Assembly: GCA_964538765.1 (NCBI GenBank) | Contig: CAZIHS010000002.1 | Location: 1,327-65,326, forward strand | Direction: 5' to 3' | DNA: 64,000 nt | Source of the DNA: an uncultured Gammaproteobacteria bacterium | Lineage (GTDB): Bacteria > Patescibacteriota > Microgenomatia > UBA12405 | Part shown: piece by piece, positions 11,830 through 49,735 of the stretch | Position numbering within the stretch: the stretch's first letter is position 1 | How the letters are laid out: each line of letters starts with the position of its first letter | The notes under the pieces: model-generated | What the model was told of the DNA's origin: nothing | What the model saw: the letters and a program-made list of their open reading frames with translations, nothing else | The model's database searches: none | Translations under genes and position numbers: made by a program

Positions 11830-12321
11830 ATGGATATACCAAACCTCTCCCAAACCCCCCCCGCCGATTCCTCGCCAACCACTCCAGACAACCAGAAGAT
11901 TTTAGTCTTAATCATAATTTTCATTTCAATTGCCCTGGGATTTTGGATATCAAGAGTCGCCCCGTCCTCAACTGTTTCGACTTCTTCCCTGAAAAACGGC
12001 ACTTCATTAACTGGCCAAACTGCTGTTAACACAGAAAACATTGCCGATCCTTCCGACATAAAAATCGGAGTGGTCTATGGTAACCTGGCTAAAAATTTTA
12101 CCGATTCCGCTGTTGGAGTTATAGAGTCGGGTAGTATTAACTCGGAAGGCACCCACATTTTAGTTCGGGAAGGGGGTTTGTCCCAGCGGGCCTCTCTAAC
12201 CTCCTCGGCCGTAGACCTTGACCTATTCGTTGGCCGTAAGGTAGAAGTAAAAGGGGAAACTAATGCTTCCAACAAAACTTCTTGGCTTATGGACGTTGGT
12301 TCAGTCAAGGTTTTGGAATGA
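11830..12321 (+). CDS. Hypothetical secreted/membrane-anchored protein
   Basis: Pro/Ser/Thr-rich N-terminus, a single TM helix ('ILVLIIIFISIALGFWI'), and a Ser/Thr-rich extracellular domain. Confidence 0.4.
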   Translation: MDIPNLSQTPPADSSPTTPDNQKILVLIIIFISIALGFWISRVAPSSTVSTSSLKNGTSLTGQTAVNTENIADPSDIKIGVVYGNLAKNFTDSAVGVIESGSINSEGTHILVREGGLSQRASLTSSAVDLDLFVGRKVEVKGETNASNKTSWLMDVGSVKVLE

Positions 12322-12322
12322 A

Positions 12323-12991
12323 ATGAAAATCGACTTTCAAAAAGTATCCAAAACATATGGTCTGGTTCAGGCCCTGTCCAACGTCAGTTTTGCAGTTGAA
12401 AGTGGAGAGTTTGTTTTTATCGTCGGTCCCTCGGGAGCCGGCAAATCAACGCTTATCAAGCTTATCTTAAACCAGGTCAAGCCGGACGACGGTTCGGTAG
12501 TAATTGACAACATTGATTTGTCCAAGGCAACCCGCCGTCAGATAGACACAATCAGGCGTCAAATAGGAGTAGTCTTTCAGGACTATCAGCTTATCTCCGA
12601 CAAAACCGTTGAAGAAAATATCTCCTTAGCTCTTGACATTGCGGGTTTTCCCAATGCCCAAAGACCTGCCAAAATTAGTCAGGTAATTGAACAGGTAAAC
12701 CTAAGTTCCCGTCGTTTTCTCTTTCCCTCCCAGCTATCCGGAGGAGAGTTGCAAAGGGCGTGTTTGGCTCGGGCTTTGGCTGTAGACCCCAAGGTCATTC
12801 TTGCCGATGAACCCACCGGCAACCTTGATCCTGACAACATTGCCATTCTGATGGCCATTTTTAGAGAAATAAACAAAAAAACAAAAGCTACTGTTATTAT
12901 GACCACCCACAACCAGGACATTATCGGTTCCACCACCAAAAGAATTATTACTCTAAAAAACGGAACAATTTCCAACGATATAAAAAAATAA
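12323..12991 (+). CDS. ftsE: Cell-division ABC ATPase FtsE
   Basis: Walker A 'GPSGAGKST', ABC signature 'LSGGELQR', Walker B 'ILADEPTGNLD'. The start was moved to the ATG at 12323, directly after the upstream stop; the longer ORF from 12263 overlaps the previous gene. Confidence 0.9.
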   Translation: MKIDFQKVSKTYGLVQALSNVSFAVESGEFVFIVGPSGAGKSTLIKLILNQVKPDDGSVVIDNIDLSKATRRQIDTIRRQIGVVFQDYQLISDKTVEENISLALDIAGFPNAQRPAKISQVIEQVNLSSRRFLFPSQLSGGELQRACLARALAVDPKVILADEPTGNLDPDNIAILMAIFREINKKTKATVIMTTHNQDIIGSTTKRIITLKNGTISNDIKK

Positions 12992-12992
12992 C

Positions 12993-13865
12993 ATGACTCT
13001 TTTTCAAAACACCTGGCACCATCTTCGCCGCTCACCCTTTCAAACCATTACCGCCTTTCTGGTAATGTTCATCTGTTTTTTTTGTCTAAATACTTTCGCG
13101 ATTATAAGTCGCGGGCTTTCCACGGTCCTGCTCTACTTTGAAACCAAACCGGAAGTCACCATATTTTTAAAAGACGGACTTGATCGAAACACAATTGACG
13201 GCCTTCAAAAAGAGCTGGCTGATTATCCTAATGTTAAAGAAATTAAGTATATTTCCAAAGAAAAAGCTCTTTCAATATATAAAGAACAAAACAAAGCCAA
13301 TCCGCTTCTCACCGAGATGGTAACCTCTAGCATTCTTCCCGCTTCTTTCGAAGTCTCGGTATCCGACCCGCTTACCCTTGACCAGGTCGCCCAAAATTTT
13401 TCCGCCAAAACATCGCAAATTGATGAAATTATTTATCAGAAAGATTTAATAAACTCATTGCTTTCCTGGACCAGTCTCATACGTAAAATCGGCCTTATCA
13501 TCATAAGCACTGGGGTTTTTGTTGCTTTCCTAATCATTAGCGCGATTATCAGCCTAAAGGCAACCAACCGGCGTGACGAGGTTAAAATTAGCCGGCTTTT
13601 GGGAGCTTCTAAATTCTATGTTCACCGCCCTTTTCTTCTTGAAGGAGCCTTTTACGGTTTGTTTGGAAGTATAGCGGCCTTCTTCACTAGTGGCGGTATT
13701 TTTCTTTATTTCCGGTCTCAAATTAATTCCAGCTTTCAGCCAATCGAGTTTATTGGTTTTAATCCGAATTTTATCCTGCTTTCCTTTTCTCTCGAAGTAT
13801 TTTTTGGTTTGCTAGTTGGTTATCTGGCCAGTTGGTTTGCGGTTCGCCGTCACATTAAGTTTTAA
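12993..13865 (+). CDS. ftsX: Cell-division permease-like protein FtsX
   Basis: FtsX topology: an N-terminal TM helix, an extracellular loop domain and three C-terminal TM helices. It sits immediately downstream of ftsE. Confidence 0.85.
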   Translation: MTLFQNTWHHLRRSPFQTITAFLVMFICFFCLNTFAIISRGLSTVLLYFETKPEVTIFLKDGLDRNTIDGLQKELADYPNVKEIKYISKEKALSIYKEQNKANPLLTEMVTSSILPASFEVSVSDPLTLDQVAQNFSAKTSQIDEIIYQKDLINSLLSWTSLIRKIGLIIISTGVFVAFLIISAIISLKATNRRDEVKISRLLGASKFYVHRPFLLEGAFYGLFGSIAAFFTSGGIFLYFRSQINSSFQPIEFIGFNPNFILLSFSLEVFFGLLVGYLASWFAVRRHIKF

Positions 13866-13870
13866 ATACA

Positions 13871-14983
13871 ATGCTGAAACTAGTCGTATTTTTGCTCTGC
13901 CTATATTTTTGGCTATCTCTTCCGGTGCAACAGTTTCTTAGCGCTCGAAAATCAGACGGAGGTTGTGAAACAAGCGAGGAATGTGACTCTGATATAAAAC
14001 AATACACCCAAAAATTATCCGAACTTGAAAAAACAAAAGACAGTCTTTCAAAGCAACTCAATATTCTCAGCTCCCAAATCAGCCTAACCCTTCTAAAAAT
14101 AAATCAAACCGAGTTGCTTATCCGCCAACTGCAAGCCGAGATCGACAAACTTACCGTAAAAATTAATATTCTCGACGACAATCTGAATCAACTTTCTTCA
14201 ATCTATTTAAAGCAAATTGACCAAAATTACCGGCTTTCAAAGCGTTTTGCCAATATCCCAATTTTAGTCTTGATGGGCGGTGACTCGTTTCTAAAACAAT
14301 ACAAATACGTCACCACCCTGCAAAGATACAACCAAAGTACTCTTCTAAGTATGGAAACAACCAGGACAAATTATGACATCCAAAAATCTCAAAAACAAAA
14401 AAAGCAGGAAGAAATGGAAATACTTCAGGGTAAATTAGCCTCAGAGAAAAACAATTTGGCCAAGCAAAAAGAATCAAAATCCACCCTTCTCTCTATCACC
14501 CAAAACGATGAAAATCGCTATCAGCAACTTAAAAAAGCCGCCGAAAACGAATTGAGTTCGCTTCTAAAAGCTAAATTTGTTGGTAAAAAGGAAGTTAGGA
14601 AAGGAGACCCTCTTGGCTTAATGGGTAATACCGGTTATTCATTTGGTGACCATCTTCATTTCGGGTTATACGATCTTAAGGAGGATAACTTGGCTCAATG
14701 GTCCTACCCAAACGACGCCGACCCAATTCCCTACATAAACCAAAACCGTTGGCCAATGGATGCTCCCATTGAAATTACCCAGGATCGCGGCCGCACCAAA
14801 TATTCATATCTTTATTCCGATCATTTTCACCACGGAGTTGACATGGTCTCTGACAATAAAACGGTCAGGGCGGTAAACGATGGCGTGGCCTACATCTATC
14901 GTAACGCTGGAAGCAGCCTAGGAAATCACGTCAAACTATTTCACCCCGACGGCAAGATGACTCTGTACCTTCACCTTCAGTAG
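13871..14983 (+). CDS. EnvC-like coiled-coil protein with an M23/LytM peptidase domain whose two halves appear in reversed order
   Basis: Signal anchor and a long coiled coil. The C-terminal half of M23 ('VGKKEVRKGDPLGLMGNTGYSFGDHLHFGLY') comes before the N-terminal half ('HHGVDM...VRAVNDGVAYIY...GNHVKLFHPDGKMTLYLHLQ'), and the ORF ends there. Confidence 0.75.
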   Translation: MLKLVVFLLCLYFWLSLPVQQFLSARKSDGGCETSEECDSDIKQYTQKLSELEKTKDSLSKQLNILSSQISLTLLKINQTELLIRQLQAEIDKLTVKINILDDNLNQLSSIYLKQIDQNYRLSKRFANIPILVLMGGDSFLKQYKYVTTLQRYNQSTLLSMETTRTNYDIQKSQKQKKQEEMEILQGKLASEKNNLAKQKESKSTLLSITQNDENRYQQLKKAAENELSSLLKAKFVGKKEVRKGDPLGLMGNTGYSFGDHLHFGLYDLKEDNLAQWSYPNDADPIPYINQNRWPMDAPIEITQDRGRTKYSYLYSDHFHHGVDMVSDNKTVRAVNDGVAYIYRNAGSSLGNHVKLFHPDGKMTLYLHLQ

Positions 14984-15031: not shown

Positions 15032-15637
15032 TCAGAAACCTCGGGCCAGTTTTCTAATCACTATGGCCAATCCAATTGAAGAAAGTAGAATCAAACTTAT
15101 GGAAAAAACAGAAGTGCCGCCCGTCTCGGGAACTTCTTTGTTGCCAATAAAAAAGGAGGCGGTATCACTGTCATAAAGATCACCCACCCTTACTTCAGCT
15201 TTGTTTGTCAGCATTTTCCTGCCAAAACCGGAAGACAACTCTTCAACCTTTGCCTTAATCAGGTACTCTCTGCTTTCTCCTGGTCCCAAAGTAGAAATCT
15301 CCCAAGTAACAAGGTTTTTATCTTTTTGCCCGGGATACAAAATCAAAACTAAATATGAAGGCAAAAAGTCCTTAACCTTGATGTTTTGCAAACTTTCATT
15401 ACCTGTATTTTCTACTCTAACTTTATATTCAACTATCTCGTTTTCAAAAAAAATCTTCTGGTTATAGGAAATGTTGTCAAGATACTGGTTTATTCCCAGC
15501 TGGCCAACCTTCTTATCAATTACTATTGACTTTACGCTACCGCCTCCATATGTATATTGCGCCATCACCTTGCCGGCCAAACCAGAAAATATGGTCACTC
15601 CGGCCAAGAAATATAAGGCCACTGTTTTGAAATTCAT
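15032..15637 (-). CDS. Cell-wall-anchored surface protein: DUF11-like repeat domain plus LPXTG-type sorting signal
   Basis: N-terminal signal peptide. The C-terminus is 'VPETGG', then a hydrophobic stretch, then 'RKLARGF', which is a canonical sortase sorting signal. Confidence 0.7.
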   Translation of the reverse strand: MNFKTVALYFLAGVTIFSGLAGKVMAQYTYGGGSVKSIVIDKKVGQLGINQYLDNISYNQKIFFENEIVEYKVRVENTGNESLQNIKVKDFLPSYLVLILYPGQKDKNLVTWEISTLGPGESREYLIKAKVEELSSGFGRKMLTNKAEVRVGDLYDSDTASFFIGNKEVPETGGTSVFSISLILLSSIGLAIVIRKLARGF

Positions 15638-16460: not shown

Positions 16461-17897
16461 ATGACCCAACCAATATCAAAAAGGTTGGTTTTACTAACCC
16501 TCATCATTGTCCTCGCCGCCTTTTTCCGTCTATACCGCATCAATGATTATATGGAATACTTAGGTGATCAGGGCCGGGACCTTATTATCATCAGGGAGTT
16601 TCTAGTCAACAAAAACCTGTTTTTTATCGGTCCTCAAACCAGTGTCGGGAACATGTATTTAGGACCATGGTTTTATTATTTTATCGCTCCAAGCCTTCTG
16701 TTTGCCGGCTACAATCCGGTTGGACCGGCAATATTCACTGGACTTTTAGGAGTATTAACAATATATCTTGTCTACCATGTTGCCTCCCGGTGGTTTAGTG
16801 TACCCGTCGGGCTTGCCGCCTCCCTTTTGATGTCAATTTCGCCGGTAGTCATTAAATATTCAACTTCTTCCTGGAATCCCAACGTTATGCCCCTTTTTTC
16901 CTTGTTGTTCATCTATTTCCTATGCCAAAAACGCTATATTCCGGCCACAATTTCCTTTATTATGATAATTAATTCCCACTATTTAGGTATATTACTTTTA
17001 GCGCCGGCAATATTTATCCTCATCCACAACTATAAAACCAGCCAGCAAAAAATCCCGATATTTATCCGCCATTTAATTTTCCCGGCTATATTATTCATTA
17101 TCAGTCTTTCACCCCTGATACTATTTGATCTGAAACATCAGGGGCAAAATATCGGTGCGGTCCTACGTTTTTTTAGCCAGCGTGAAACCACCGTTAATTT
17201 AAAACCTTACAAGGCTTTTCCTTTAATTTTTCCTCTCACCAGACAAGTATTCGAAAGGTTGCTGTTGGGTAAAAACCACTTGGTGTCTCTAGTTGCCACA
17301 TTATTATTTCTCTTGGGCTCACTCATGGCCTTTATCCGTTTTCGCTTTTCCAACTATTATCTGAACCTAATATATCTTTGGATATTCACTGGCATTGTCG
17401 GTTTGGCGCTATACAAACAGCATATTTATGATCACTATTTTGGCTTTATTTTTCCGGCCATATTTATCCTAGCTGCCTACCTAATTGTCCAGGTTAAGTA
17501 CTCAACCGTCCGCTATATAATTATTGCCGTTTTAGTCATCCTTTCGTTAGTGGAAAATCCATTTCGCTGGCCGCCACCAAAACAACTCCAAACCAGTTCC
17601 CAAATCACCGACTCAATCATTGCTGACAGTCAGAACCTCCCCTTCAACTTTGCTCTTCTCGCCAAGCAAAACTATGACCCGCCCTACCGCTATCTATTTA
17701 TCCTTAAGGGCGCCCCGTTATATTCCATTGACCAAAAACTTACAAAGCAGCTATATGTTGTCTGTGAACCTTTTCAAACCGACTGCAATCCCATCAATAA
17801 TCCCGAGTGGTCTGTGGCGGCTTTTGGCTGGGGTAAGATCGCCAAGTCGTGGCAAATCAACGGCATCAGTATATACAAAATTGTCCACAATATTTAG
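16461..17897 (+). CDS. Polytopic membrane glycosyltransferase, GT-C superfamily (subfamily A)
   Basis: 478 aa with about 12 TM helices. The N-terminal loop 'RINDYMEYLGDQGRDL...IGPQTSVGNMYLGPWFYYF' is shared with 17849 and 19371. Confidence 0.6.
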   Translation: MTQPISKRLVLLTLIIVLAAFFRLYRINDYMEYLGDQGRDLIIIREFLVNKNLFFIGPQTSVGNMYLGPWFYYFIAPSLLFAGYNPVGPAIFTGLLGVLTIYLVYHVASRWFSVPVGLAASLLMSISPVVIKYSTSSWNPNVMPLFSLLFIYFLCQKRYIPATISFIMIINSHYLGILLLAPAIFILIHNYKTSQQKIPIFIRHLIFPAILFIISLSPLILFDLKHQGQNIGAVLRFFSQRETTVNLKPYKAFPLIFPLTRQVFERLLLGKNHLVSLVATLLFLLGSLMAFIRFRFSNYYLNLIYLWIFTGIVGLALYKQHIYDHYFGFIFPAIFILAAYLIVQVKYSTVRYIIIAVLVILSLVENPFRWPPPKQLQTSSQITDSIIADSQNLPFNFALLAKQNYDPPYRYLFILKGAPLYSIDQKLTKQLYVVCEPFQTDCNPINNPEWSVAAFGWGKIAKSWQINGISIYKIVHNI

Positions 17898-19369
17898 AAA
17901 TAGTGAAGAATATTAGATTATCAACCGTATTAATTGTCATCTTCTGGCTCGCAGGGTTGTTTCTTCGAACCTACCGCCAAAAAGACCTTCTTGGATTTTA
18001 CTACGACCAAGGGTGCGATGCCCAAATAGCCTCAGACATTATCCACCTTCGTAATTTACCCGCCATCGGTCCAACCACCGGAATCCCCGGTTTGCATCTT
18101 GGACCGTTTTGGTTTTATCTTTTGGCACCCTTTTATTTTATAGGTTCTGGCAGTCCGGTAATTGCCAGTTACTTCATTTCGTTTATCGACAGTTTATCAA
18201 TCATCCTGTTATACCTAATTCTCAAAAAATATCACTCGGCCTCTGCCGGTTTGGTTGGCGCCGCAACATACAGCTTCAGCCGGTACCTAATAAGCTCTTC
18301 CCGGTGGTTTTCCAATCCTTCTCCGCTACCGTTTTTTACTCTTCTGGCAATATATCTTACTCTTGAAGTATTTTCACAAAAAAAATTTAATCGGCTGCCT
18401 CTGCTTTCTTTAGTTCTAGGATTATCTCTTCAACTCGAGGCCGCCAGCGCCATTTTTTTCTACCTTTCTCTCGGAGCATATACAGTTTTGCAGCTCTCAA
18501 CAGCCAAAGCTATTCCGCTTAAATATTACCGGAATGCTTTTGGTGTATTTATTGTTCTTCTCATCCCCCAATTTGCTTTCGAGCTAAAAAATAATTACCC
18601 CACCCTAAAGACATTGATGTTGTTTACAACCGGTCGGGTTGCCTCTTCGGGTACACCTTCGTGGTCGATCCCAAACATTAATTTTATCCAAAACAGGCTT
18701 CTAACTTATTACCAGTATTTATTCAGCAAGTTTGATGTTTCTGTATCAATATATTCCACCATCGCTTTAATGGTGTTTCTTTTTGGTTTGGTTCTATTGC
18801 TAAAGCGGCAATCTGATCAGCCGCTGGTCAGGCTAACTTGCGTCTGGCTGATAGTTCCGCTGACTCTCCTGCTGTTTTTTAGTGGCAATTATGGTCGGCT
18901 ATATGACTATTATTTGACTGGTTTTTACCCAAGCTTCGTTATCATTGTCTCTTTAATTTTGTTCTTGCCAAGCAAAATAATATCAAAGACAGTCTTAATC
19001 TTGCTGTTTTTTGTATATTTTATTTTTGGAAACGAAGTTCACCTCTATCATTATCTGACAGATGGAATTGACGGGCCCACCAATGTCGTGTTTGGCAATC
19101 AGTTTGCCGCGGTTTCCAAACTTTGTTCCATGCCGGAAGACTATCGGCTTGACATCTATGTTCCGCCGATTACGCCATTATCCTATGACTATCTTTTCGA
19201 CTGGCTTTCCTCCACAGGTTGCCGACGGCCATCTTCATCAGGTCCTCTCCTCCTACTCTACGAAACCGACCTGGTAAACCCCGGCAGTTTGCAAAAATGG
19301 CTTTCTAAACAGCCAAACCGCCTGCCGGTTGCAAAATTTGGCGGAGTCACTATTGAAAAAGTCAAATAA
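17849..19369 (+). CDS. Polytopic membrane glycosyltransferase, GT-C superfamily (subfamily A paralog)
   Basis: 'YYDQGCDAQIASDIIHL...IGPTTGIPGLHLGPFWFYLL' is paralogous to 16461. Both 17849 and the non-overlapping 17903 are GTG start candidates. Confidence 0.6.
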   Translation: MANQRHQYIQNCPQYLEIVKNIRLSTVLIVIFWLAGLFLRTYRQKDLLGFYYDQGCDAQIASDIIHLRNLPAIGPTTGIPGLHLGPFWFYLLAPFYFIGSGSPVIASYFISFIDSLSIILLYLILKKYHSASAGLVGAATYSFSRYLISSSRWFSNPSPLPFFTLLAIYLTLEVFSQKKFNRLPLLSLVLGLSLQLEAASAIFFYLSLGAYTVLQLSTAKAIPLKYYRNAFGVFIVLLIPQFAFELKNNYPTLKTLMLFTTGRVASSGTPSWSIPNINFIQNRLLTYYQYLFSKFDVSVSIYSTIALMVFLFGLVLLLKRQSDQPLVRLTCVWLIVPLTLLLFFSGNYGRLYDYYLTGFYPSFVIIVSLILFLPSKIISKTVLILLFFVYFIFGNEVHLYHYLTDGIDGPTNVVFGNQFAAVSKLCSMPEDYRLDIYVPPITPLSYDYLFDWLSSTGCRRPSSSGPLLLLYETDLVNPGSLQKWLSKQPNRLPVAKFGGVTIEKVK

Positions 19370-41546: not shown

Positions 41547-43187
41547 ATGCCTCGAACGCTGACTTTGGCCTTGATTGTTGTAATCGCCTTATTTATCCGA
41601 ACCTTTAATCTTTCCTCAATCCCTCCGGCTCTTTTTTCAGACGAAATCGATGCCGGCTATCAGGCCATGGTGTTTAACCGCTTTGGTTCAGACTATTTCG
41701 GAAACAAGTTTCCGGTTCATTTCCATTCTTTTTCCGACTGGCGAACCCCGCTTTACATATATTCTGTTGCCATTTTTCAAAAAATCGGTTTCAGCCCCGA
41801 AACCTCTATCAGGCTACCATCAGTGTTTTATAGTCTGCCGTGCCTGTTGTTTTTATATTTATTAACCAAATCATTAATTCCTCCGTTTATGTTTTCTTTA
41901 TCACCGTGGGCTGTTCACTACGGTCGAACAGGCTTTGAAGTCAGTGGTATGCTTTTTTGTCAAATAGCCTCGATAGTTTTTCTGCAAAATGGTTTAAAAA
42001 ATCGCTCTACTATTAAGCTTGCCGTCAGCCAACTTCTCCTAATATCATCTATCTATTTTTATAGCACTGCCAAACTCTTTGTTCCGTTTATTATACTTGC
42101 CGAAATTTATATCTACAGGCAGGCCCTGCGCAAATTTAGCAATAAAAGTCTTTTTATTGTTGGCCTCATTAGCCTGGTATTCATAGTCCCGCTAGTAAGA
42201 GACACCCTTCTTCGCCGAACCGGTTTTCGTTTTTCATACATCAGCATTATTACCGACCCGCAAGTTAAAAATCAGGTTGATTATCAACGTTATCAGGACA
42301 TTATCCTAAGCCATCAAAATCAAATTGGCGTAAGCCCTACTATATTTTCAAAAATAATTCATAACCGTTACACAAAAATTATCCAAACATTCCTGTTAAA
42401 CTACACCTCCTCTTTTTCTACTCAATTCCTGATTACAACCGGCGACACCAACCTTCGCCATGGTTTTGGAAACCGCGGCTATCTATACATCATCGACTTA
42501 TTACTTATAGCAACGGCAATTTTTACAATTTATAGATCACCCTCAAAGTTGTCCCTACTGTTCCTTATTTCACTTATTATTGCCCCCATCCCCTTTTCGC
42601 TTACCCGTGATTCAACTTCTCCTCATGCCACGAGATTAATTCTGATGCTTCCATCCTTAATATACCTTTCATACTTCGGCTTTGCCAAACTAGTTTCCCG
42701 TTATCAAATATTGGGGCCATTAATTATTATCGTGTATACAACCTCTTTTCTCCTGTTTTGGCACGATTATCAACTTCATTACCCTTTGGTATCGGCCCGA
42801 TATTGGCATTATGGTATTAAAGAGGCCGTTTTAGCCGCCACCCAAAATAATCCTTCTTCAATATATTTTTCAAACTCAGCCGAACCCTTTTTGCCATTCT
42901 TTCTTTTCTACCACCGCTATCTTCCTGCCTCATCAAAAGGAAACATTGCCTCGCAATTAACCAGCTACCGCGATAGCCGGTTTGACGGAAAGCAACTAGA
43001 AAGTAAGTACTATTTTGGCAATTTCACCTCAAACCTTACTGGTTTCCCTCCGGGCTCCTTACTTGTCCTGCCCCGGCTTGAGTATTATTCCAATCAAAAT
43101 TTTGCCTCTTTTAAAATCGTCCACCAAACACCTTTAAAATACCCTGAACAAGATCAGTTTTTTGTTTTAAATCCAAATGAAACATAA
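41547..43187 (+). CDS. PMT_2/ArnT-like GT-C glycosyltransferase
   Basis: 'IPPALFSDEIDAGYQAMVF...IRLPSVFY' loop motif, multi-TM. Confidence 0.65.
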   Translation: MPRTLTLALIVVIALFIRTFNLSSIPPALFSDEIDAGYQAMVFNRFGSDYFGNKFPVHFHSFSDWRTPLYIYSVAIFQKIGFSPETSIRLPSVFYSLPCLLFLYLLTKSLIPPFMFSLSPWAVHYGRTGFEVSGMLFCQIASIVFLQNGLKNRSTIKLAVSQLLLISSIYFYSTAKLFVPFIILAEIYIYRQALRKFSNKSLFIVGLISLVFIVPLVRDTLLRRTGFRFSYISIITDPQVKNQVDYQRYQDIILSHQNQIGVSPTIFSKIIHNRYTKIIQTFLLNYTSSFSTQFLITTGDTNLRHGFGNRGYLYIIDLLLIATAIFTIYRSPSKLSLLFLISLIIAPIPFSLTRDSTSPHATRLILMLPSLIYLSYFGFAKLVSRYQILGPLIIIVYTTSFLLFWHDYQLHYPLVSARYWHYGIKEAVLAATQNNPSSIYFSNSAEPFLPFFLFYHRYLPASSKGNIASQLTSYRDSRFDGKQLESKYYFGNFTSNLTGFPPGSLLVLPRLEYYSNQNFASFKIVHQTPLKYPEQDQFFVLNPNET

Positions 43188-44886
43188 ATTTTTTAAAGGA
43201 TATTTGGTAACTCTTGCGTTGTTTTTACTTTTTATATTTTCTTCCTGGCGGCTACTTCGGCCGGGATACTATTCGATGCAAGACGACATCCATGTTTTCC
43301 GGCTTTGGCAGTATCACCAATGTTTTAAGGACCATCAACTGCCATGCCGGTATGTTCCCGACGCTGGTTTTGGATACGGATATCCTCTGTTTAATTTTTA
43401 TTCACCGTTTTTCTATCAGGGCAGCCATCTTTTTTACCTTCTCGGCTTCTCACTTATTAATAGCATCAAAATTATGGTGGTTACTTCCAATGCCCTAATG
43501 GTCATCGGCATCTTTCTTTTAGCCGGCTTTCTATTTAACACCCCCGCCGCTGTTATTGTTTCGGCACTTTACACTTTAGCCCCCTACCACGCCCTTAACG
43601 TTTACGTACGTGGCGCCTTCTCTGAAAACCTGTCGCTCTCAATTCTGCCTATTTTAATTTATCTGACCCTGAAGTTTATCAAAATCACTTCCTTTTCAAC
43701 CGGCATCATCTTTACACTCTTCTTCACAACATATTTACTATCACACAACCTTTCAATAATTTATGGTCTACCCCTAATAGTTCTGTTCATAATAGTAATT
43801 TACTATAAACAGCCAGACCTAAAAAAAAGACTAATTAAATTTTCTATTTTCCCCATAATCTCGTTAGGAATTTCCTCATACTTTCTTATACCGGCAATTT
43901 TTGAAAAACGATTTACCACAGTTACAACCATGACCCAGGGGTATTTCAGCTTTATAAACCACTTCGTAACTCTTAAGCAGTTATTTACAGATCGAAACTG
44001 GAGTTATGGCGCCTCTCTTTGGGGTCCCAACGACGACATGTCTTTTCAAGTTGGAATTATTCATTGGATTGTCCCATTAATTTTTCTTCTAATTTTAACT
44101 GTAAAATATCTTACATCAAAAAATATTTCCTTTCCGTTTCATCAAGACCGTCTGGCATTATACCTATGCCTGATATCAATCCTGTTTATGTTTCTTACCC
44201 ACAACAGGTCAACTCCTCTTTGGCAATTGTTTCCCTTTATGCCATATTTTCAATTTCCCTGGCGCTTCTTAGGCCCTCTTTCCTTAACCCTGTCTTTGCT
44301 ATCCGGATATCTCTACTACCGGCTATTTTCATCCCATCCTCACCCAGTGACTATCTTGGTAATAATCATATCTTTGGTCACTTATCTAAACCTGCCATAT
44401 TTTAAAGAAGACATTTGGTATCCGGGTTACACCGATAAAGACAGGCTGACACCCTCTGAAATAGTTCGCCAAAGTGGGGCAGGTTTAAAAGATTACTGGC
44501 CAAACTATGGCACCAAGTTTCCGGATACTTATTCAAACAATACTCCTAAAATAGAAGCGGGAAAAGTCAAAACACTCGATTTTAAGAAAAATTCAACATC
44601 AGCAACCGCCTCCTTTCTTGTTATTTCTGATTCAGCCACTATTGTCTTGCCAGTTGTATTTTTTCCTAAAATGTCAACCTATGTTGACGGCAAACCAATT
44701 CAATTCTTCATCGACCCAGAGTATGGACTTATCAAAGTTAACCTTCCCAACGGCTCCCATCAATTGCTAGTTGAACTAAAAAATACCCCGGTTCGAATTT
44801 TTTCTAATATTATCTCCGGATTAAGTTTAATTGCCCTTTTCTGGCTAATACTATCCCACTCTATTCGAAAAGAATTCCGCCTATGA
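43177..44886 (+). CDS. YfhO-like GT-C-type polytopic membrane protein (paralog of 23219)
   Basis: 'SMQDDIHVFRLWQYHQCFKDHQLPCRYVPDAGFGYGYPLFNFY' is colinear with the 23219 protein, and the two share motifs along their whole length. Confidence 0.5.
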   Translation: MKHKFFKGYLVTLALFLLFIFSSWRLLRPGYYSMQDDIHVFRLWQYHQCFKDHQLPCRYVPDAGFGYGYPLFNFYSPFFYQGSHLFYLLGFSLINSIKIMVVTSNALMVIGIFLLAGFLFNTPAAVIVSALYTLAPYHALNVYVRGAFSENLSLSILPILIYLTLKFIKITSFSTGIIFTLFFTTYLLSHNLSIIYGLPLIVLFIIVIYYKQPDLKKRLIKFSIFPIISLGISSYFLIPAIFEKRFTTVTTMTQGYFSFINHFVTLKQLFTDRNWSYGASLWGPNDDMSFQVGIIHWIVPLIFLLILTVKYLTSKNISFPFHQDRLALYLCLISILFMFLTHNRSTPLWQLFPFMPYFQFPWRFLGPLSLTLSLLSGYLYYRLFSSHPHPVTILVIIISLVTYLNLPYFKEDIWYPGYTDKDRLTPSEIVRQSGAGLKDYWPNYGTKFPDTYSNNTPKIEAGKVKTLDFKKNSTSATASFLVISDSATIVLPVVFFPKMSTYVDGKPIQFFIDPEYGLIKVNLPNGSHQLLVELKNTPVRIFSNIISGLSLIALFWLILSHSIRKEFRL

Positions 44887-46490
44887 CAAAATTTTATCAA
44901 AAATTCCTGTTTATTCTAATCCTTTTTCTTGCAATATTTCTGCGGTTTTACCGCCTTGGCTCGCTGATGCCATCCCTAAATTGGGACGAAATATCTCACG
45001 GTTATAACGCCTACAGCCTGCTTAAAACCGGAAAAGACCAATGGAACCAACCCTTTCCAGTATTTAACTTTCGTGCCTATGGAGACTACCCGATGGCCGC
45101 GAATCTCTACCTAACCCTTCCCTTTATTAAAGTTTTCGGTCTAAACAATTATTCTGTGCGACTACCCTCCGCGGTCCTTGGCTCCATATTCGTAGTTATA
45201 ATTTACCTGTTTGTCTACAAGGTAACTCGAAACCAGCTGCTTTCCTTGGTTATTATGACTGCTTCTGCCATCATTCCATGGACTCTATTTCCTTCAAGAG
45301 CGGTTTTTCAATCAAACCTGGCTCAGTTGTTTTTACTGCTCAGCTTACTGCTCCTGATTATTTCTAGGTCAAAAATACGGTTCTTTCCCTTTTCAATATT
45401 ATTCCTGGTTGTCTCAAGCTATTGTTATCACAACACCCGTTTTTTAAGTCCGTTTTTAATAGTCGCTTACTTCACCCATTATTGTTACTACCACCATCAT
45501 CTTCAAAATTTTAAAAAAATTCTATTAACATCGTCGCTAATACTGCTCCTTTACCTCCCAAATTTTTTTAATATCTTTCAACCTGAAAGCTGGGCTCGGA
45601 CTCAATGGGTTGGAGTTCTTGGCCAAAACTCCATCAATATTATCAACGAAAAAAGACGCCTTTTTAACGGACCACAATTTGTTAGCCGCATCGTCTACAA
45701 CAAAGCTTCATTCCTGGGCAATGTACTGGTAAAAAACTATCTTAGCTTTTTTAATCCTTCCTATATATTTTTCAGAGGCAGTCAAAATTACCAGTTTAAC
45801 CCGCCCCAAACCCCGTTAATATTTTCAGTATTTCTCCCGTTCTTTTATATTGGAATTTACCCGTTACTTAAAAAATATCCTTTCCTGTTTTTTATGTGGA
45901 TGCTTACGCTTCTGCCGGCAGCTCTCACAATTGGCGACTATCCCTCAATAAGGATGACAATAGCTGTTCCATTTTATCTTTTATCTATTGCTCTCGGTAT
46001 TTCAGCCACAATAAAAGTTCTAAAAAGCTCATATCCTGCATACCTGTTTATTGTTATCGTTTCTCTAATTCAACTTAACTTCTGGTGGCAACGCTATTCC
46101 ACAGATTACGCAACAAACTATTCTCAAGCGTGGCAATATGGCTACCAGCCGGCTGTCGACTATATCAGAGCTGTATATAAAAAATACGACCATGTTGTCT
46201 TTACTAAAAAATATGGTGAACCGCACCAATTTATTTTATTTTATTGGCCATGGGAACCTGCCATCTACCAGTCGTCTCCTGTTTTGTGGGATTTTCATTC
46301 TGGATGGTACTGGGTAAACTCATTTGATAAGTTTACTTTTATAGACGACTGGCAAATAAAAGATCAGACATTTTATCCCAAAACGCTCCTGATTACCTCG
46401 CCTGACAATGTTCCAAATATCAATTTAACTAAACTGAAAACCATATATTATCCAAACAGCAAACCCGTATTCGAAATATATGAAAACTAA
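44883..46490 (+). CDS. PMT_2/ArnT-like GT-C glycosyltransferase (tandem paralog 1)
   Basis: 'SLNWDEISHGYNAYSLLKTGKDQW...YSVRLPSAVLGS' loop motif, multi-TM. Confidence 0.7.
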   Translation: MTKFYQKFLFILILFLAIFLRFYRLGSLMPSLNWDEISHGYNAYSLLKTGKDQWNQPFPVFNFRAYGDYPMAANLYLTLPFIKVFGLNNYSVRLPSAVLGSIFVVIIYLFVYKVTRNQLLSLVIMTASAIIPWTLFPSRAVFQSNLAQLFLLLSLLLLIISRSKIRFFPFSILFLVVSSYCYHNTRFLSPFLIVAYFTHYCYYHHHLQNFKKILLTSSLILLLYLPNFFNIFQPESWARTQWVGVLGQNSINIINEKRRLFNGPQFVSRIVYNKASFLGNVLVKNYLSFFNPSYIFFRGSQNYQFNPPQTPLIFSVFLPFFYIGIYPLLKKYPFLFFMWMLTLLPAALTIGDYPSIRMTIAVPFYLLSIALGISATIKVLKSSYPAYLFIVIVSLIQLNFWWQRYSTDYATNYSQAWQYGYQPAVDYIRAVYKKYDHVVFTKKYGEPHQFILFYWPWEPAIYQSSPVLWDFHSGWYWVNSFDKFTFIDDWQIKDQTFYPKTLLITSPDNVPNINLTKLKTIYYPNSKPVFEIYEN

Positions 46491-48132
46491 ACATAAAACC
46501 ACTCTCTTGCTGATTATCATTACTATTATTTCACTAATATTAAGATTGCACTCACTAAACTCATATCCGCCTCTTCTCTGGGACGAAGCCTCACTTGGAT
46601 ACAATGCCTACTCAATATTAACTACCGGAAAGGACGAACATGGCGCTGTTTTACCTATATTTTTTAAATCATTTGGTGACTACAAGCCTGGTCTATATGT
46701 ATATTTAACTATCCCGTTTGTCTATATTTTCGGTCTAAACACTTTATCAGTAAGACTCCCCTCAGCTCTACTTGGATCACTCCTTCCGCTTGTGTTCTAC
46801 TTATTGGTCAAACGCCTCACCGGCAATAGAAAACTATCTTTAATTTGCGCCTTAGTTTTAGCTTTTAACCCCTACAACCTTCATTATTCAAAAGGAGCCT
46901 GGGAAACAAACCTTTTATTATTCGAGCTGTGCCTTGCCTCATTACTCTACTACCATAATAAATATAATCTGGCCGCGGTTATTCTCGGCCTAACAATATA
47001 TTCATACCAAAGCGGAAAAATATTTAGCCTGATCCTCATCCTGGTCATATTTCTATCAAAACTATCCAGCATTAAAAATAATAAGCCGGCCGTCAAAGCA
47101 TTACTCCAAGTTTTCCCGGCCAGCTTTATGTTAATATTTCTGACTTTCTCCATTCCGGCAATTTTGGGGCTTATCTTTTCCCCTCAGGGGGACCGTTTGA
47201 AAGTCTTAAGCCTGTTTTCCTACCATCGGAGTATTCAGGAAACCGCTGAAATAAAAAAGGAATCTTTTGGACCTCTTGACTACAATTTATTTCACTCTGA
47301 AGCGATTTATTTTCTAAGGAATTTTATTCTGCGATACTTTAACAACTTTAGCCCGAAATTTCTAATTTTTGAAGGAGACTGGCAAAACCCCCGGCACAGT
47401 GCCCCCTACGCCGGCGTAATATTAATCCCTTCGTTTGCATTTCTAATAATCGGTCTTTTCGTTCGAAAAACAGTAAAAAGCACCAAAGCTTTCATATTTT
47501 TCATTCTTCTGCTTTTGCTTTCACCAATCCCGGCTTCTCTCACCCGTGATACTATCCAAGCCACCCGAAGCTTACCATTTTCCCTTCCACTGGTATATTT
47601 TACCTCACTCGGGTTATACCAGGCACTAAAACTGTGCCAAAAGCTCCTGATGTTACCAAGATATTTCTCTTTCGCCCTGGTATGCATTATCTACCTGTTC
47701 GCATTTATATATTATCAAGACTTATATTATAGCCATATGATTAAAAAGTCGCCAAAGGACTGGTTGTATGGTTACCAACAGGCCATCGAATACATTAAAC
47801 ACAACCGCATTCCAGAAACCAAAGTATACTTAACCAACTTTTACGGACAGCCCTACATATTTTACCTGTTTTTTAACAAATTCCCCCCAACTTTATATCA
47901 ACAGCAATCAAAGCTGATTTCAACCGGTCCGGATGTTGGACAAATTTATTCGATTAAAAGTGACAACATAATTTTTACCAGTCCCGATTTTAATAACCTT
48001 AAATATCAACCAAATACCCTGATCGTCATCTCGGACGACGAGGTTTTAAGGCAGGGGATAGACAAAAACCTGCTAACCCCGCTTTCCCAGATCGGCGGAA
48101 TTTCAACATTTTATGGCTACAAAACATACTAA
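46480..48132 (+). CDS. PMT_2/ArnT-like GT-C glycosyltransferase (tandem paralog 2)
   Basis: 'PLLWDEASLGYNAYSILTTGKDEHG...LSVRLPSALLGS' loop motif, multi-TM. Confidence 0.7.
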   Translation: MKTKHKTTLLLIIITIISLILRLHSLNSYPPLLWDEASLGYNAYSILTTGKDEHGAVLPIFFKSFGDYKPGLYVYLTIPFVYIFGLNTLSVRLPSALLGSLLPLVFYLLVKRLTGNRKLSLICALVLAFNPYNLHYSKGAWETNLLLFELCLASLLYYHNKYNLAAVILGLTIYSYQSGKIFSLILILVIFLSKLSSIKNNKPAVKALLQVFPASFMLIFLTFSIPAILGLIFSPQGDRLKVLSLFSYHRSIQETAEIKKESFGPLDYNLFHSEAIYFLRNFILRYFNNFSPKFLIFEGDWQNPRHSAPYAGVILIPSFAFLIIGLFVRKTVKSTKAFIFFILLLLLSPIPASLTRDTIQATRSLPFSLPLVYFTSLGLYQALKLCQKLLMLPRYFSFALVCIIYLFAFIYYQDLYYSHMIKKSPKDWLYGYQQAIEYIKHNRIPETKVYLTNFYGQPYIFYLFFNKFPPTLYQQQSKLISTGPDVGQIYSIKSDNIIFTSPDFNNLKYQPNTLIVISDDEVLRQGIDKNLLTPLSQIGGISTFYGYKTY

Positions 48133-49735
48133 TATCATTTTATCGATAATACTTTTGCTGGCTCTTGTTATTCGCGGCTGGCATCTCTCCTCCGTTCCAG
48201 CCTTAAATCCTGACGAAGCCTCGCTCGGCTACAATGCTTTTTCAATCATCAACACCTTAAAAGACGAGCATGGTTCACTTCTTCCAATTCATTTTAAATC
48301 CTTTGGTGACTTTAAGCCGGGAGGATATGTTTACCTGTCCATCCCCTTTATTAAAATATTCGGGCTAAATCCTTTGGCCGTAAGACTACCCAATCTGATA
48401 TTTTCTATTCTGGCGATATATATATTCTCCAAACTGATCCTGCTTCTTTCTGCTAACCAAACTTTAGCACTTATCTCCGCCGTCTTTTTATCAATTTCTC
48501 CCTGGCACATTCACTTTTCGCGCGGCGCCTGGGAAAGCAATGTCGCTCTCACTTTAATACTGGTAGCAAACTATTATTTTCTATTATTTGTTCGTCAGTC
48601 TAAAAATCGTTATCTATACTATTCTCTGGCCTTATTTTCAACCTCCCTCTATTTTTATCATTCAGCCCGCATTTTAGCTCCAACCTTACTGCTTTTCTTA
48701 TTAATCTCAAACTACAAAAAACTTGCAGATCATAAAATAACAGTTTTCACGGCTATTGCTTTATTTTTACTAATCGCTGGCCCGGTTACCATATCTTTTA
48801 TTACAAACGGTGGCAGTTCGAGATTTTCAGGAGTTGGCCTGTTGGCTGATCCCGGTCCGCTTTCCCGATCAGAGGAGTTATTAAACCACCACTCAAGTAC
48901 CCTTCTTGGCTACAGAACCATCCACAACCGCCGTTTGCTATACCTGCTATCATGGTCAGAAAAATATCTATCCCATTTCAGTCCCAACTTTTTATTCGTT
49001 ACCGGCGATGAAGTCCCCAGATCAAAATCTCCGGAGGTCGGCCAGCTAAACCTTATCGATTTCCCTTTGATTATAGTCGGCGCCTATATAATTTTTTCCA
49101 CCTCTTCATCTCTTGTTATTAAGAATTTTTATCTTTCCTGGTTCATTCTCGCCCCTTTGGCCTCTTCATTAACATTCCAATCACCGTCCGCACTACGTTC
49201 CCTGCCTCTGGTAATTCCCTTTATTGGGCTTTCTTCCACTGGCTTCTACTACATAGCCACAACCGTTCGGCGCAAAATTCCCGGTCTATTCGAAATCATA
49301 TCAATTATCGCCATTGCCGCCATCGTCTATTTCCATATATATTATTTAGACGCCTATTTTATTCACTCACCAAAAAGGTATCCATTTGCCTGGAACACGT
49401 CTGCCGACAAAATAGTCTCGGTTATAAACCAAAATAAGGATAAATACAATCAAGTATATCTTACAACTAAATATGACCAGCCATACATCCTATATTTATT
49501 TTATAGTCACTATCCACCGGCCCAAATTCAATCTCAAATAAAACTAACCCCAAAAGATCAGTTTGGCTTCTCGACGGTGTCCAAAATTGACAATATCTAT
49601 TTTGAAAAAATCAACTGGTCAAATATCCCGGCCAACTCTTTAGTTATAGCCGCAGACGAACCCGTGCCTCAAGGGCCTGCTAAGGTGCTAAATTTTCCAA
49701 ACGGTTCACCCGGTTATAATATATACATCAAATGA
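48113..49735 (+). CDS. PMT_2/ArnT-like GT-C glycosyltransferase (tandem paralog 3)
   Basis: 'ALNPDEASLGYNAFSIINTLKDEHG...LAVRLPNLIFS' loop motif, multi-TM. Confidence 0.7.
   Translation: MATKHTNIILSIILLLALVIRGWHLSSVPALNPDEASLGYNAFSIINTLKDEHGSLLPIHFKSFGDFKPGGYVYLSIPFIKIFGLNPLAVRLPNLIFSILAIYIFSKLILLLSANQTLALISAVFLSISPWHIHFSRGAWESNVALTLILVANYYFLLFVRQSKNRYLYYSLALFSTSLYFYHSARILAPTLLLFLLISNYKKLADHKITVFTAIALFLLIAGPVTISFITNGGSSRFSGVGLLADPGPLSRSEELLNHHSSTLLGYRTIHNRRLLYLLSWSEKYLSHFSPNFLFVTGDEVPRSKSPEVGQLNLIDFPLIIVGAYIIFSTSSSLVIKNFYLSWFILAPLASSLTFQSPSALRSLPLVIPFIGLSSTGFYYIATTVRRKIPGLFEIISIIAIAAIVYFHIYYLDAYFIHSPKRYPFAWNTSADKIVSVINQNKDKYNQVYLTTKYDQPYILYLFYSHYPPAQIQSQIKLTPKDQFGFSTVSKIDNIYFEKINWSNIPANSLVIAADEPVPQGPAKVLNFPNGSPGYNIYIK

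Follow-up and report, generated by a model that had tools for sequence, protein, structure and literature searches.

A circularly permuted M23 peptidase domain in the predicted FtsEX partner of a Patescibacterium

How should an M23 peptidase domain be understood when its two halves stand in the reverse of their usual order, at the end of a coiled-coil protein whose gene lies directly downstream of ftsE and ftsX? The question is raised by a 64,000-nucleotide stretch of DNA (positions 1,327 to 65,326 of contig CAZIHS010000002.1, assembly GCA_964538765.1), referred to here as the window, whose source organism belongs to the Patescibacteria and is Microgenomates/Shapirobacteria-like. The open reading frame (ORF) at 13871..14983 on the plus strand, stop codon included, encodes a protein of 370 residues in which a coiled coil is followed by a circularly permuted M23 domain of 135 residues. 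(Nucleotide coordinates of the window's genes are window positions; residue numbers refer to the translation of this ORF.) Taken together, the evidence makes it quite probable that the product is an active, FtsEX-controlled peptidoglycan endopeptidase of Patescibacteria, with a complete M23 domain in permuted form.

In canonical M23 domains the motifs run in the order HxxxD, YxHL, HxH. The window protein scores above the PF01551 threshold and has all of these motifs, HxxxD as H320-H-G-V-D324, HxH as H261-L-H263, and the YxHL histidine as H368 within LYLHLQ, but it presents them as HxH, HxxxD, YxHL. The part that corresponds to the canonical C-terminal portion of M23 comes first (segment A, residues 236-290, 14576..14740, as placed by the hhalign, PDB, and NCBIfam alignments) and contains the V..G..IG..GNTG hairpin, HxH, and the tail DPIPYI. 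A junction of three residues, NQN (residues 291-293, 14741..14749, from the hhalign coordinates), leads into the part that corresponds to the canonical N-terminal portion (segment B, residues 294-370, 14750..14980, placed by Pfam and hhalign), which contains WPM..IEITQ.RG, HxxxD, GNHVKLFH, and YLHLQ. Because the motif order is not collinear with that of the family, the protein is filed as a permuted variant of M23 and not as a standard member.

The reversal had been noticed in an original prediction made from the sequence, and the peptides on which it relied are present in the translation. The HxH half, VGKKEVRKGDPLGLMGNTGYSFGDHLHFGLY, occupies residues 237-267; its start had been put at 14582, but lies one codon earlier, at nucleotide 14579. 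The other half, 'HHGVDM...LYLHLQ', spans residues 320-370 and is followed directly by TAG (14981-14983), and the distance between HxH (H261/H263) and HxxxD (H320/D324), which had been estimated at about 55 residues, is 57. The ORF also stops where it was said to stop, at the permutation junction: the protein ends 2 residues beyond the catalytic H368, and the new termini are located in the loop that follows YxHL.

Four independent comparisons, with Pfam, NCBIfam, PDB chains, and hhalign, agree on a circular permutation in which canonical positions 86-128 precede positions 1-79. Alignment to PF01551, which had been proposed as a check, yields a split match of two stretches in reversed order (54.4 bits against a cut-off of 28.7, E 1.4e-14), the better of which places residues 319-370 on profile positions 2-53 of 96. 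Residues 240-267 match the C-terminal ends of the NCBIfam M23 models MepM, ShyA, Pgp3, and Pgp6. For the comparisons with solved structures, the query is numbered within the domain itself (residues 226-370); for hhalign, profiles of permuted and of canonical homologues were compared, and query positions are those of the permuted profile. The alignment with TagE (5j1l) crosses over, with chain residues 37-116 equivalent to query 67-144 and chain residues 126-155 equivalent to query 16-45 (E 2.2e-8), and the same crossing pattern is seen with the solved M23 chains 3slu, 6muk, and 9gy1. In the native order, hhalign gives a first match of query positions 59-137 to canonical positions 1-79 (E 4.8e-29) and a second, non-collinear match of query positions 4-56 to canonical positions 86-128 (E 6e-24). 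When the halves are swapped in silico, these become a single match of query positions 1-134 to canonical positions 2-128 of 128, with a probability of 100%, an E value of 4.5e-52, and a score of 288. The sequence blocks and the five metal-binding and catalytic residues are those of canonical M23 domains (PF01551) such as LytM, lysostaphin, TagE, ShyA, MepM, and Csd3; the difference is that the blocks are exchanged and that the old termini, the tail DPIPYI and the start WPM..IEITQ.RG, are joined by about 3 residues. On these alignments, the M23 domain of the 370-residue protein is a clean circular permutant.

All of the catalytic and zinc-ligand residues are in place, as had been claimed: H261 (14651-14653) and H263 (14657-14659) in segment A, and H320 (14828-14830), D324 (14840-14842), and H368 (14972-14974) in segment B. 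At a threshold of E <= 1e-3, 579 homologues of the full-length protein were found. The top 120 of these are 350-432 residues long and 52-100% identical to it (at most 62% except for an exact copy, P0001), and a check of the order of the segments found A before B in 120 of the 120; in all 15 homologues that were aligned and inspected, one or two residues follow the terminal YLH[LM]. Across an alignment of 118 sequences, H261, H263, H320, D324, and H353 are invariant and H368 is more than 90% conserved. In a diverse alignment of 22 permuted sequences, which share 28-73% identity with the query, H320 is nearly invariant and the other four, H261, H263, D324, and H368, do not vary. Since metal-binding and catalytic residues are divided between segments A and B and show joint conservation, the two segments would be expected to assemble into one site.

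The permuted order is not confined to close relatives. An exhaustive search with the domain alone against 1.84 billion cluster representatives (clustered at 50% identity) gave 4037 matches, and the best 150 of these comprise 59 permuted domains, 74 canonical domains, and about a dozen tandem M23 proteins. A total of 271 distinct permuted sequences was collected, all of them in the A-then-B order; in 199 the last residue of segment B is also the last of the protein, 206 have an N-terminal region of at least 180 residues, and 26 are short stand-alone proteins. Because it is both conserved and found in varied protein contexts, the permuted M23 domain is, to judge by its sequence relatives, a mobile, conserved module. 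It is seen without a coiled coil at the C-terminal end of a 1118-residue multidomain protein (P0225) and as a stand-alone protein of 154 residues (P0406). In addition, the proteins P0396-P0403, of about 170 residues, carry the permuted module with a tail of about 30 residues, one of which has a PF07589 match.

The rest of the protein resembles the partners of FtsEX. Residues 1-20 (13871..13930, MLKLVVFLLCLYFWLSLPVQ) form a hydrophobic segment, modeled as a helix at residues 2-16, that is a probable signal peptide or membrane anchor. They are followed by a helical coiled-coil region at residues 35-233 (13973..14569), for which AlphaFold predicts helices at 35-53, 59-126, 137-210, and 214-233; the second and third of these form a long helical hairpin like those of EnvC and PcsB. 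The full-length AlphaFold model, built on the 118-sequence alignment, has a predicted local distance difference test (pLDDT) score of 90.7 and a predicted template modeling (pTM) score of 0.73, and shows the four helices followed by the beta domain. Foldseek comparison of this model with the PDB gives as the best match EnvC in the V. cholerae FtsEX-EnvC complex (8tzl_E, E 3.8e-5), with EnvC 6tpi_A and PcsB 4cgk_A among the further matches.

The position of the gene is consistent with this resemblance. On the plus strand of the window, ftsE, ftsX, and the 370-residue ORF are three consecutive genes. The first, at 12263..12991, encodes the ABC (ATP-binding cassette) ATPase (Pfam ABC_tran, E 4.3e-37) and likely has its true start at the ATG at 12323 (MKIDFQ...). 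The second, at 12993..13865, encodes both the extracellular domain and the permease domain of FtsX (Pfam FtsX_ECD, E 5.1e-17, and FtsX, E 2.7e-9). The fusion of a coiled coil to M23 directly downstream of ftsE-ftsX, another claim of the original prediction, is thus borne out by the Pfam matches in the window, by Foldseek, and by the loci of relatives. A genome scan, which covered one genome per GTDB species and used only the close family as query, found 54 loci, 41 of them with at least 1 kb of upstream sequence. In 41 of these 41, ftsE is upstream on the same strand, and in 36 of the 41 the nearest upstream gene, also on that strand, is ftsX; four of the five remaining loci appear to have one extra gene between ftsX and the permuted-M23 gene. 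A Woesebacteria contig has the same order of ftsE, ftsX, and the permuted gene, and its wider synteny is identical to that of the window. The same ftsE-ftsX-gene order is found on a Berkelbacteria contig, which matches a distant family member at only about 38% identity.

Given these features, the 370-residue protein would act outside the cytoplasm as the partner of FtsEX, the ABC complex of cell division. The N-terminal hydrophobic segment would export or anchor it, and the EnvC/PcsB-like hairpin would dock on the extracellular domain of FtsX, as in known FtsEX systems. From the coiled coil, the chain enters the catalytic domain at the hairpin that follows the YxHL strand in the canonical fold, passes through HxH and the canonical C-terminal tail, crosses the junction of about 3 residues, continues through WP and HxxxD, and ends at YxHL; both segments would fold into one M23 active site. 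By analogy with known M23 enzymes, H320, D324, and H263 would bind one zinc ion and H261 and H368 would be catalytic; in lysostaphin these roles are filled by H32, D36, and H115 (zinc) and by H82 and H113 (catalysis). Because the catalytic residues are intact, the protein should itself cut peptidoglycan and not merely activate amidases. The enzyme would cleave peptide cross-links of peptidoglycan at the septum, and ATP hydrolysis by FtsE, relayed through FtsX and the coiled coil, would switch it on, as in FtsEX-PcsB, FtsEX-CwlO, and FtsEX-RipC.

PcsB of S. pneumoniae, CwlO of B. subtilis, and RipC of M. tuberculosis are FtsEX-controlled coiled-coil hydrolases of single-membrane bacteria. They share with the window protein the combination of FtsEX with a coiled-coil adaptor and a competent hydrolase in one polypeptide, but for catalysis they rely on cysteine peptidase domains of the CHAP or NlpC/P60 type and not on an M23 zinc peptidase. 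These hydrolases probably offer the closest parallel to the mode of action of the window protein.

Some observations weigh against a catalytic, FtsEX-dedicated enzyme. Two sequences in the diverse permuted alignment, P0177 and P0316, lack H320 and read WPGG[LV]D where the others have HxGxD; within the permuted family, they may be degenerate, non-catalytic members with a regulatory role. When the PDB was searched with a model of the isolated domain by sequential Foldseek alignment, no match was significant (best E 0.58; lysostaphin at E of about 2-4), although this result is uninformative for a permuted topology, which such an aligner would be expected to handle poorly. Finally, in the genome that encodes P0280 (L005:4001-8898), the gene directly after ftsE-ftsX encodes a protein with CC_PcsB and CHAP domains, and the gene for the coiled-coil permuted-M23 protein sits beside prfA, two genes upstream of ftsE. 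Because this genome has a PcsB-like CHAP gene after ftsEX, the partnership of FtsEX with the permuted proteins may not be exclusive.

If the domain were non-catalytic and regulatory, the protein would be an EnvC-like activator of a separate amidase. The resemblance to EnvC of E. coli and V. cholerae (6tpi, 8tzl) is real: like EnvC, the protein has a long helical hairpin and a C-terminal domain of the LytM/M23 type, is probably exported, and is linked to FtsEX, the best structural match is to EnvC, and the NCBI name of one homologue is 'murein hydrolase activator EnvC family protein'. EnvC activates AmiA and AmiB instead of cutting, and degenerate LytM domains, such as those of EnvC and NlpD, lack the metal and catalytic residues; the two permuted sequences without the first zinc-binding histidine would fit such a role. 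However, the LytM domain of EnvC has the canonical order and no metal ligands, whereas the present protein has a permuted order and retains every ligand, with four of the five metal-binding and catalytic residues invariant, and H320 nearly so, in sequences down to 28% identity. Furthermore, the match to the NCBIfam EnvC model (NF008644) covers only the coiled coil (residues 39-228) and reaches 23.1 bits, against a cut-off of 270. The earlier statement that this is not a degenerate LytM domain of the EnvC type therefore agrees with both the residues and the score. An EnvC-like, non-catalytic role is unlikely for the 370-residue protein, and possible for the few members without H320.

A somewhat less probable alternative is that the half-domains complement one another in trans, so that segment A of one protomer pairs with segment B of another and activity depends on dimerization through the coiled coil. 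PcsB, also a coiled-coil FtsEX partner, is dimeric in its crystal structure (4cgk), and the new termini adjoin the active site, which could favor swapping. Against this, the AlphaFold model of the isolated domain as a monomer (residues 226-370) is a single compact unit with a pLDDT of 91.0 and a pTM of 0.87, in which the pLDDT is 93-98 across the A-B junction, a stretch of about 3 residues, and short stand-alone permuted proteins without a coiled coil, P0406 among others, exist.

It is far less probable that segments A and B are the remnants of two M23 domains that now form a fold other than M23, with another function. The failure of Foldseek to retrieve solved M23 structures with the domain model is the kind of result that such a fold would give, but the de-permuted profile spans the canonical profile from end to end with no element missing, the strands of the model correspond one-to-one to the canonical M23 sequence blocks, and the conserved residues make sense only as one zinc site. 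The same model, when compared with BFVD, has one marginal match (E 2.9e-4, TMq 0.55). The only near-significant Foldseek matches of the domain model in any database (A0A510E7V3_3, H6WFX6 of cyanophage S-TIM5, and L0CQF1 of Synechococcus phage P60; TMq 0.38-0.55) are large cyanophage virion or internal-virion proteins, and no solved M23 structure scored comparably; a tblastn search of phage genomes gave half-domain matches only and no permuted phage homologue.

The suggestion that the reversed order stems from a local assembly error, a rearrangement, a frameshift, or a decaying pseudogene, or that the missing half lies downstream, has the unusual order as its sole point in favor and a negligible chance of being correct: the orthologues share the A-then-B order, which argues against an assembly artifact, the same order and the same end (YLH[LM]Q, stop) recur in hundreds of independently assembled genomes and metagenomes, the catalytic residues are strongly conserved, and, because a convergent DUF11 gene (15032..15637, minus strand) ends only 48 nt beyond position 14983, there is no room after the stop codon for another M23 half, so that these readings are ruled out.

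With an active permuted endopeptidase as the preferred reading, it can be asked whether the permutation itself alters control. A doubtful proposal is that it creates a mechanically gated M23 enzyme and so a different mode of control for an FtsEX-driven hydrolase. The coiled coil would enter the catalytic domain at a loop beside a catalytic histidine, the strand that carries H368 would be a free C-terminal end, and a movement of helix 214-233 driven by FtsEX could open, close, or complete the active site. Such gating would be distinct both from the occlusion by a restraining arm in EnvC and from the helix-in-groove inhibition of PcsB. If it were true, it might account for the fixation of the permuted topology in much of the Patescibacteria.

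How the permutation arose can be approached through the tandem and canonical relatives. The likeliest origin would be a duplication of M23 in tandem, after which the outer halves were lost, since tandem M23 proteins exist among the matches and the old termini are fused almost directly. The tandem proteins P0150, P0160, P0171, P0174, P0188, and P0192 (order B-A-B-A) can be aligned collinearly with the permuted query through the A1-B2 junction, and the intermediate that followed duplication may plausibly have looked like them. As a result of the permutation, the coiled coil would have come to be attached at the loop beside the catalytic histidine. Proteins with a coiled coil and a canonical M23 domain, in which B precedes A, are found in other Patescibacteria (e.g. 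P0323) and in Firmicutes (e.g. Tumebacillus P0364). Because proteins of this type match the permuted protein P0241 over its full length, at 24-29% identity, they suggest that the permutation took place on an existing coiled-coil plus M23 scaffold, and they plausibly resemble the ancestral, unpermuted form; P0323 is not beside ftsEX within the stretch of sequence available. In a comparison of de-permuted units, each of the 47 non-redundant permuted units is closest to another permuted unit, and in a crude neighbor-joining tree the permuted units fall into 4 pure clades. On this crude tree, the permutation may have arisen once or a few times.

There is precedent for the permutation of a peptidoglycan-peptidase catalytic domain. 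The YaeF/poxvirus G6R and LRAT-like families of NlpC/P60 are naturally circularly permuted, with their catalytic residues swapped (PMC6403190, citing Anantharaman and Aravind 2003); these differ from the present case in both fold and chemistry, being papain-like cysteine peptidases. At the level of the superfold, barrel-sandwich-hybrid ('HABAS') domains, a class exemplified by an M23 peptidase, have topologies related by circular permutation (PMC11515920). A full-text literature search found no description of a permuted M23 domain, an absence that is not proof because most subscription journals lie outside its coverage. Database names of the permuted proteins, which range from 'EnvC family activator' to 'CwlO-like', make no mention of permutation. 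The permuted M23 protein is not a new kind of system; it is a variant of M23 that combines an EnvC-like scaffold with a predicted chemistry of the canonical M23 kind.

All of the permuted proteins whose source name gives a specific lineage come from Patescibacteria (candidate phyla radiation), and the lineages named are Shapirobacteria, Woesebacteria, the Microgenomates group, Curtissbacteria, and Berkelbacteria; for the distant subfamilies, this taxonomy derives from a few named matches (Berkelbacteria, Curtissbacteria, Woesebacteria, and 'Patescibacteria group'). Many of the contigs with such loci (L009, L011, L015, L022, L023, and others) are titled 'uncultured Gammaproteobacteria bacterium' and come from metagenome-assembled genomes of the binchicken co-assembly, and one contig with ftsEX and a permuted-M23 gene is titled 'Clostridia bacterium'. 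These titles on contigs of the Patescibacteria type are probably mislabeled records.

Several features of the surrounding loci may be added. In some Shapirobacteria, a gene for a coiled-coil paralogue lies between ftsX and the permuted-M23 gene. In L030 (1850-3001), this paralogue is 383 residues long and has a very similar coiled coil and, at its C-terminus, a weak match to the papain-like Peptidase_C39_2 (E 2.5e-4, below the cut-off); a similar gap of ~1.1 kb separates ftsX from the permuted gene in L037, L039, and L049. From these arrangements, FtsEX may serve two hydrolases built on the same scaffold. In the Woesebacteria relative with identical synteny (L001), the positions of two flanking genes are kept: that of the DUF11 (CLIPPER) gene, which encodes a surface-type protein, and that of a gene for a 163-residue protein just upstream of ftsE (11830-12321), whose counterparts in L001 and L002 have no Pfam hit on record. 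The conserved block may extend beyond ftsEX and the hydrolase. Elsewhere in the window, at 16461-19369 and 41547-49735, are at least 6 paralogues of PMT/PMT_2-like membrane glycosyltransferases (GT-C type, about 480-570 residues), arranged as an adjacent pair and then as a head-to-tail array of five genes, two of which have no Pfam match at all.

Peptidases and related proteins of the M23 family, such as lysostaphin, LytM, ShyA, MepM, EnvC, and NlpD, are central to wall growth and division, and M23 peptidases are used as enzybiotics. A widespread natural permutant indicates that the M23 fold tolerates new termini beside its active site, which would be useful for protein engineering. For annotation, the permutation explains why domain models match such proteins in two pieces, matches that can be misread as truncated or degenerate domains. 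The finding is thus of interest for protein evolution, engineering, and annotation, and also for cell division in the Patescibacteria, a subject that to our knowledge has hardly been studied. For these bacteria, the permuted protein would be a candidate septal hydrolase and would represent a natural experiment, in which FtsEX is coupled to a catalytic domain through a different point of attachment.

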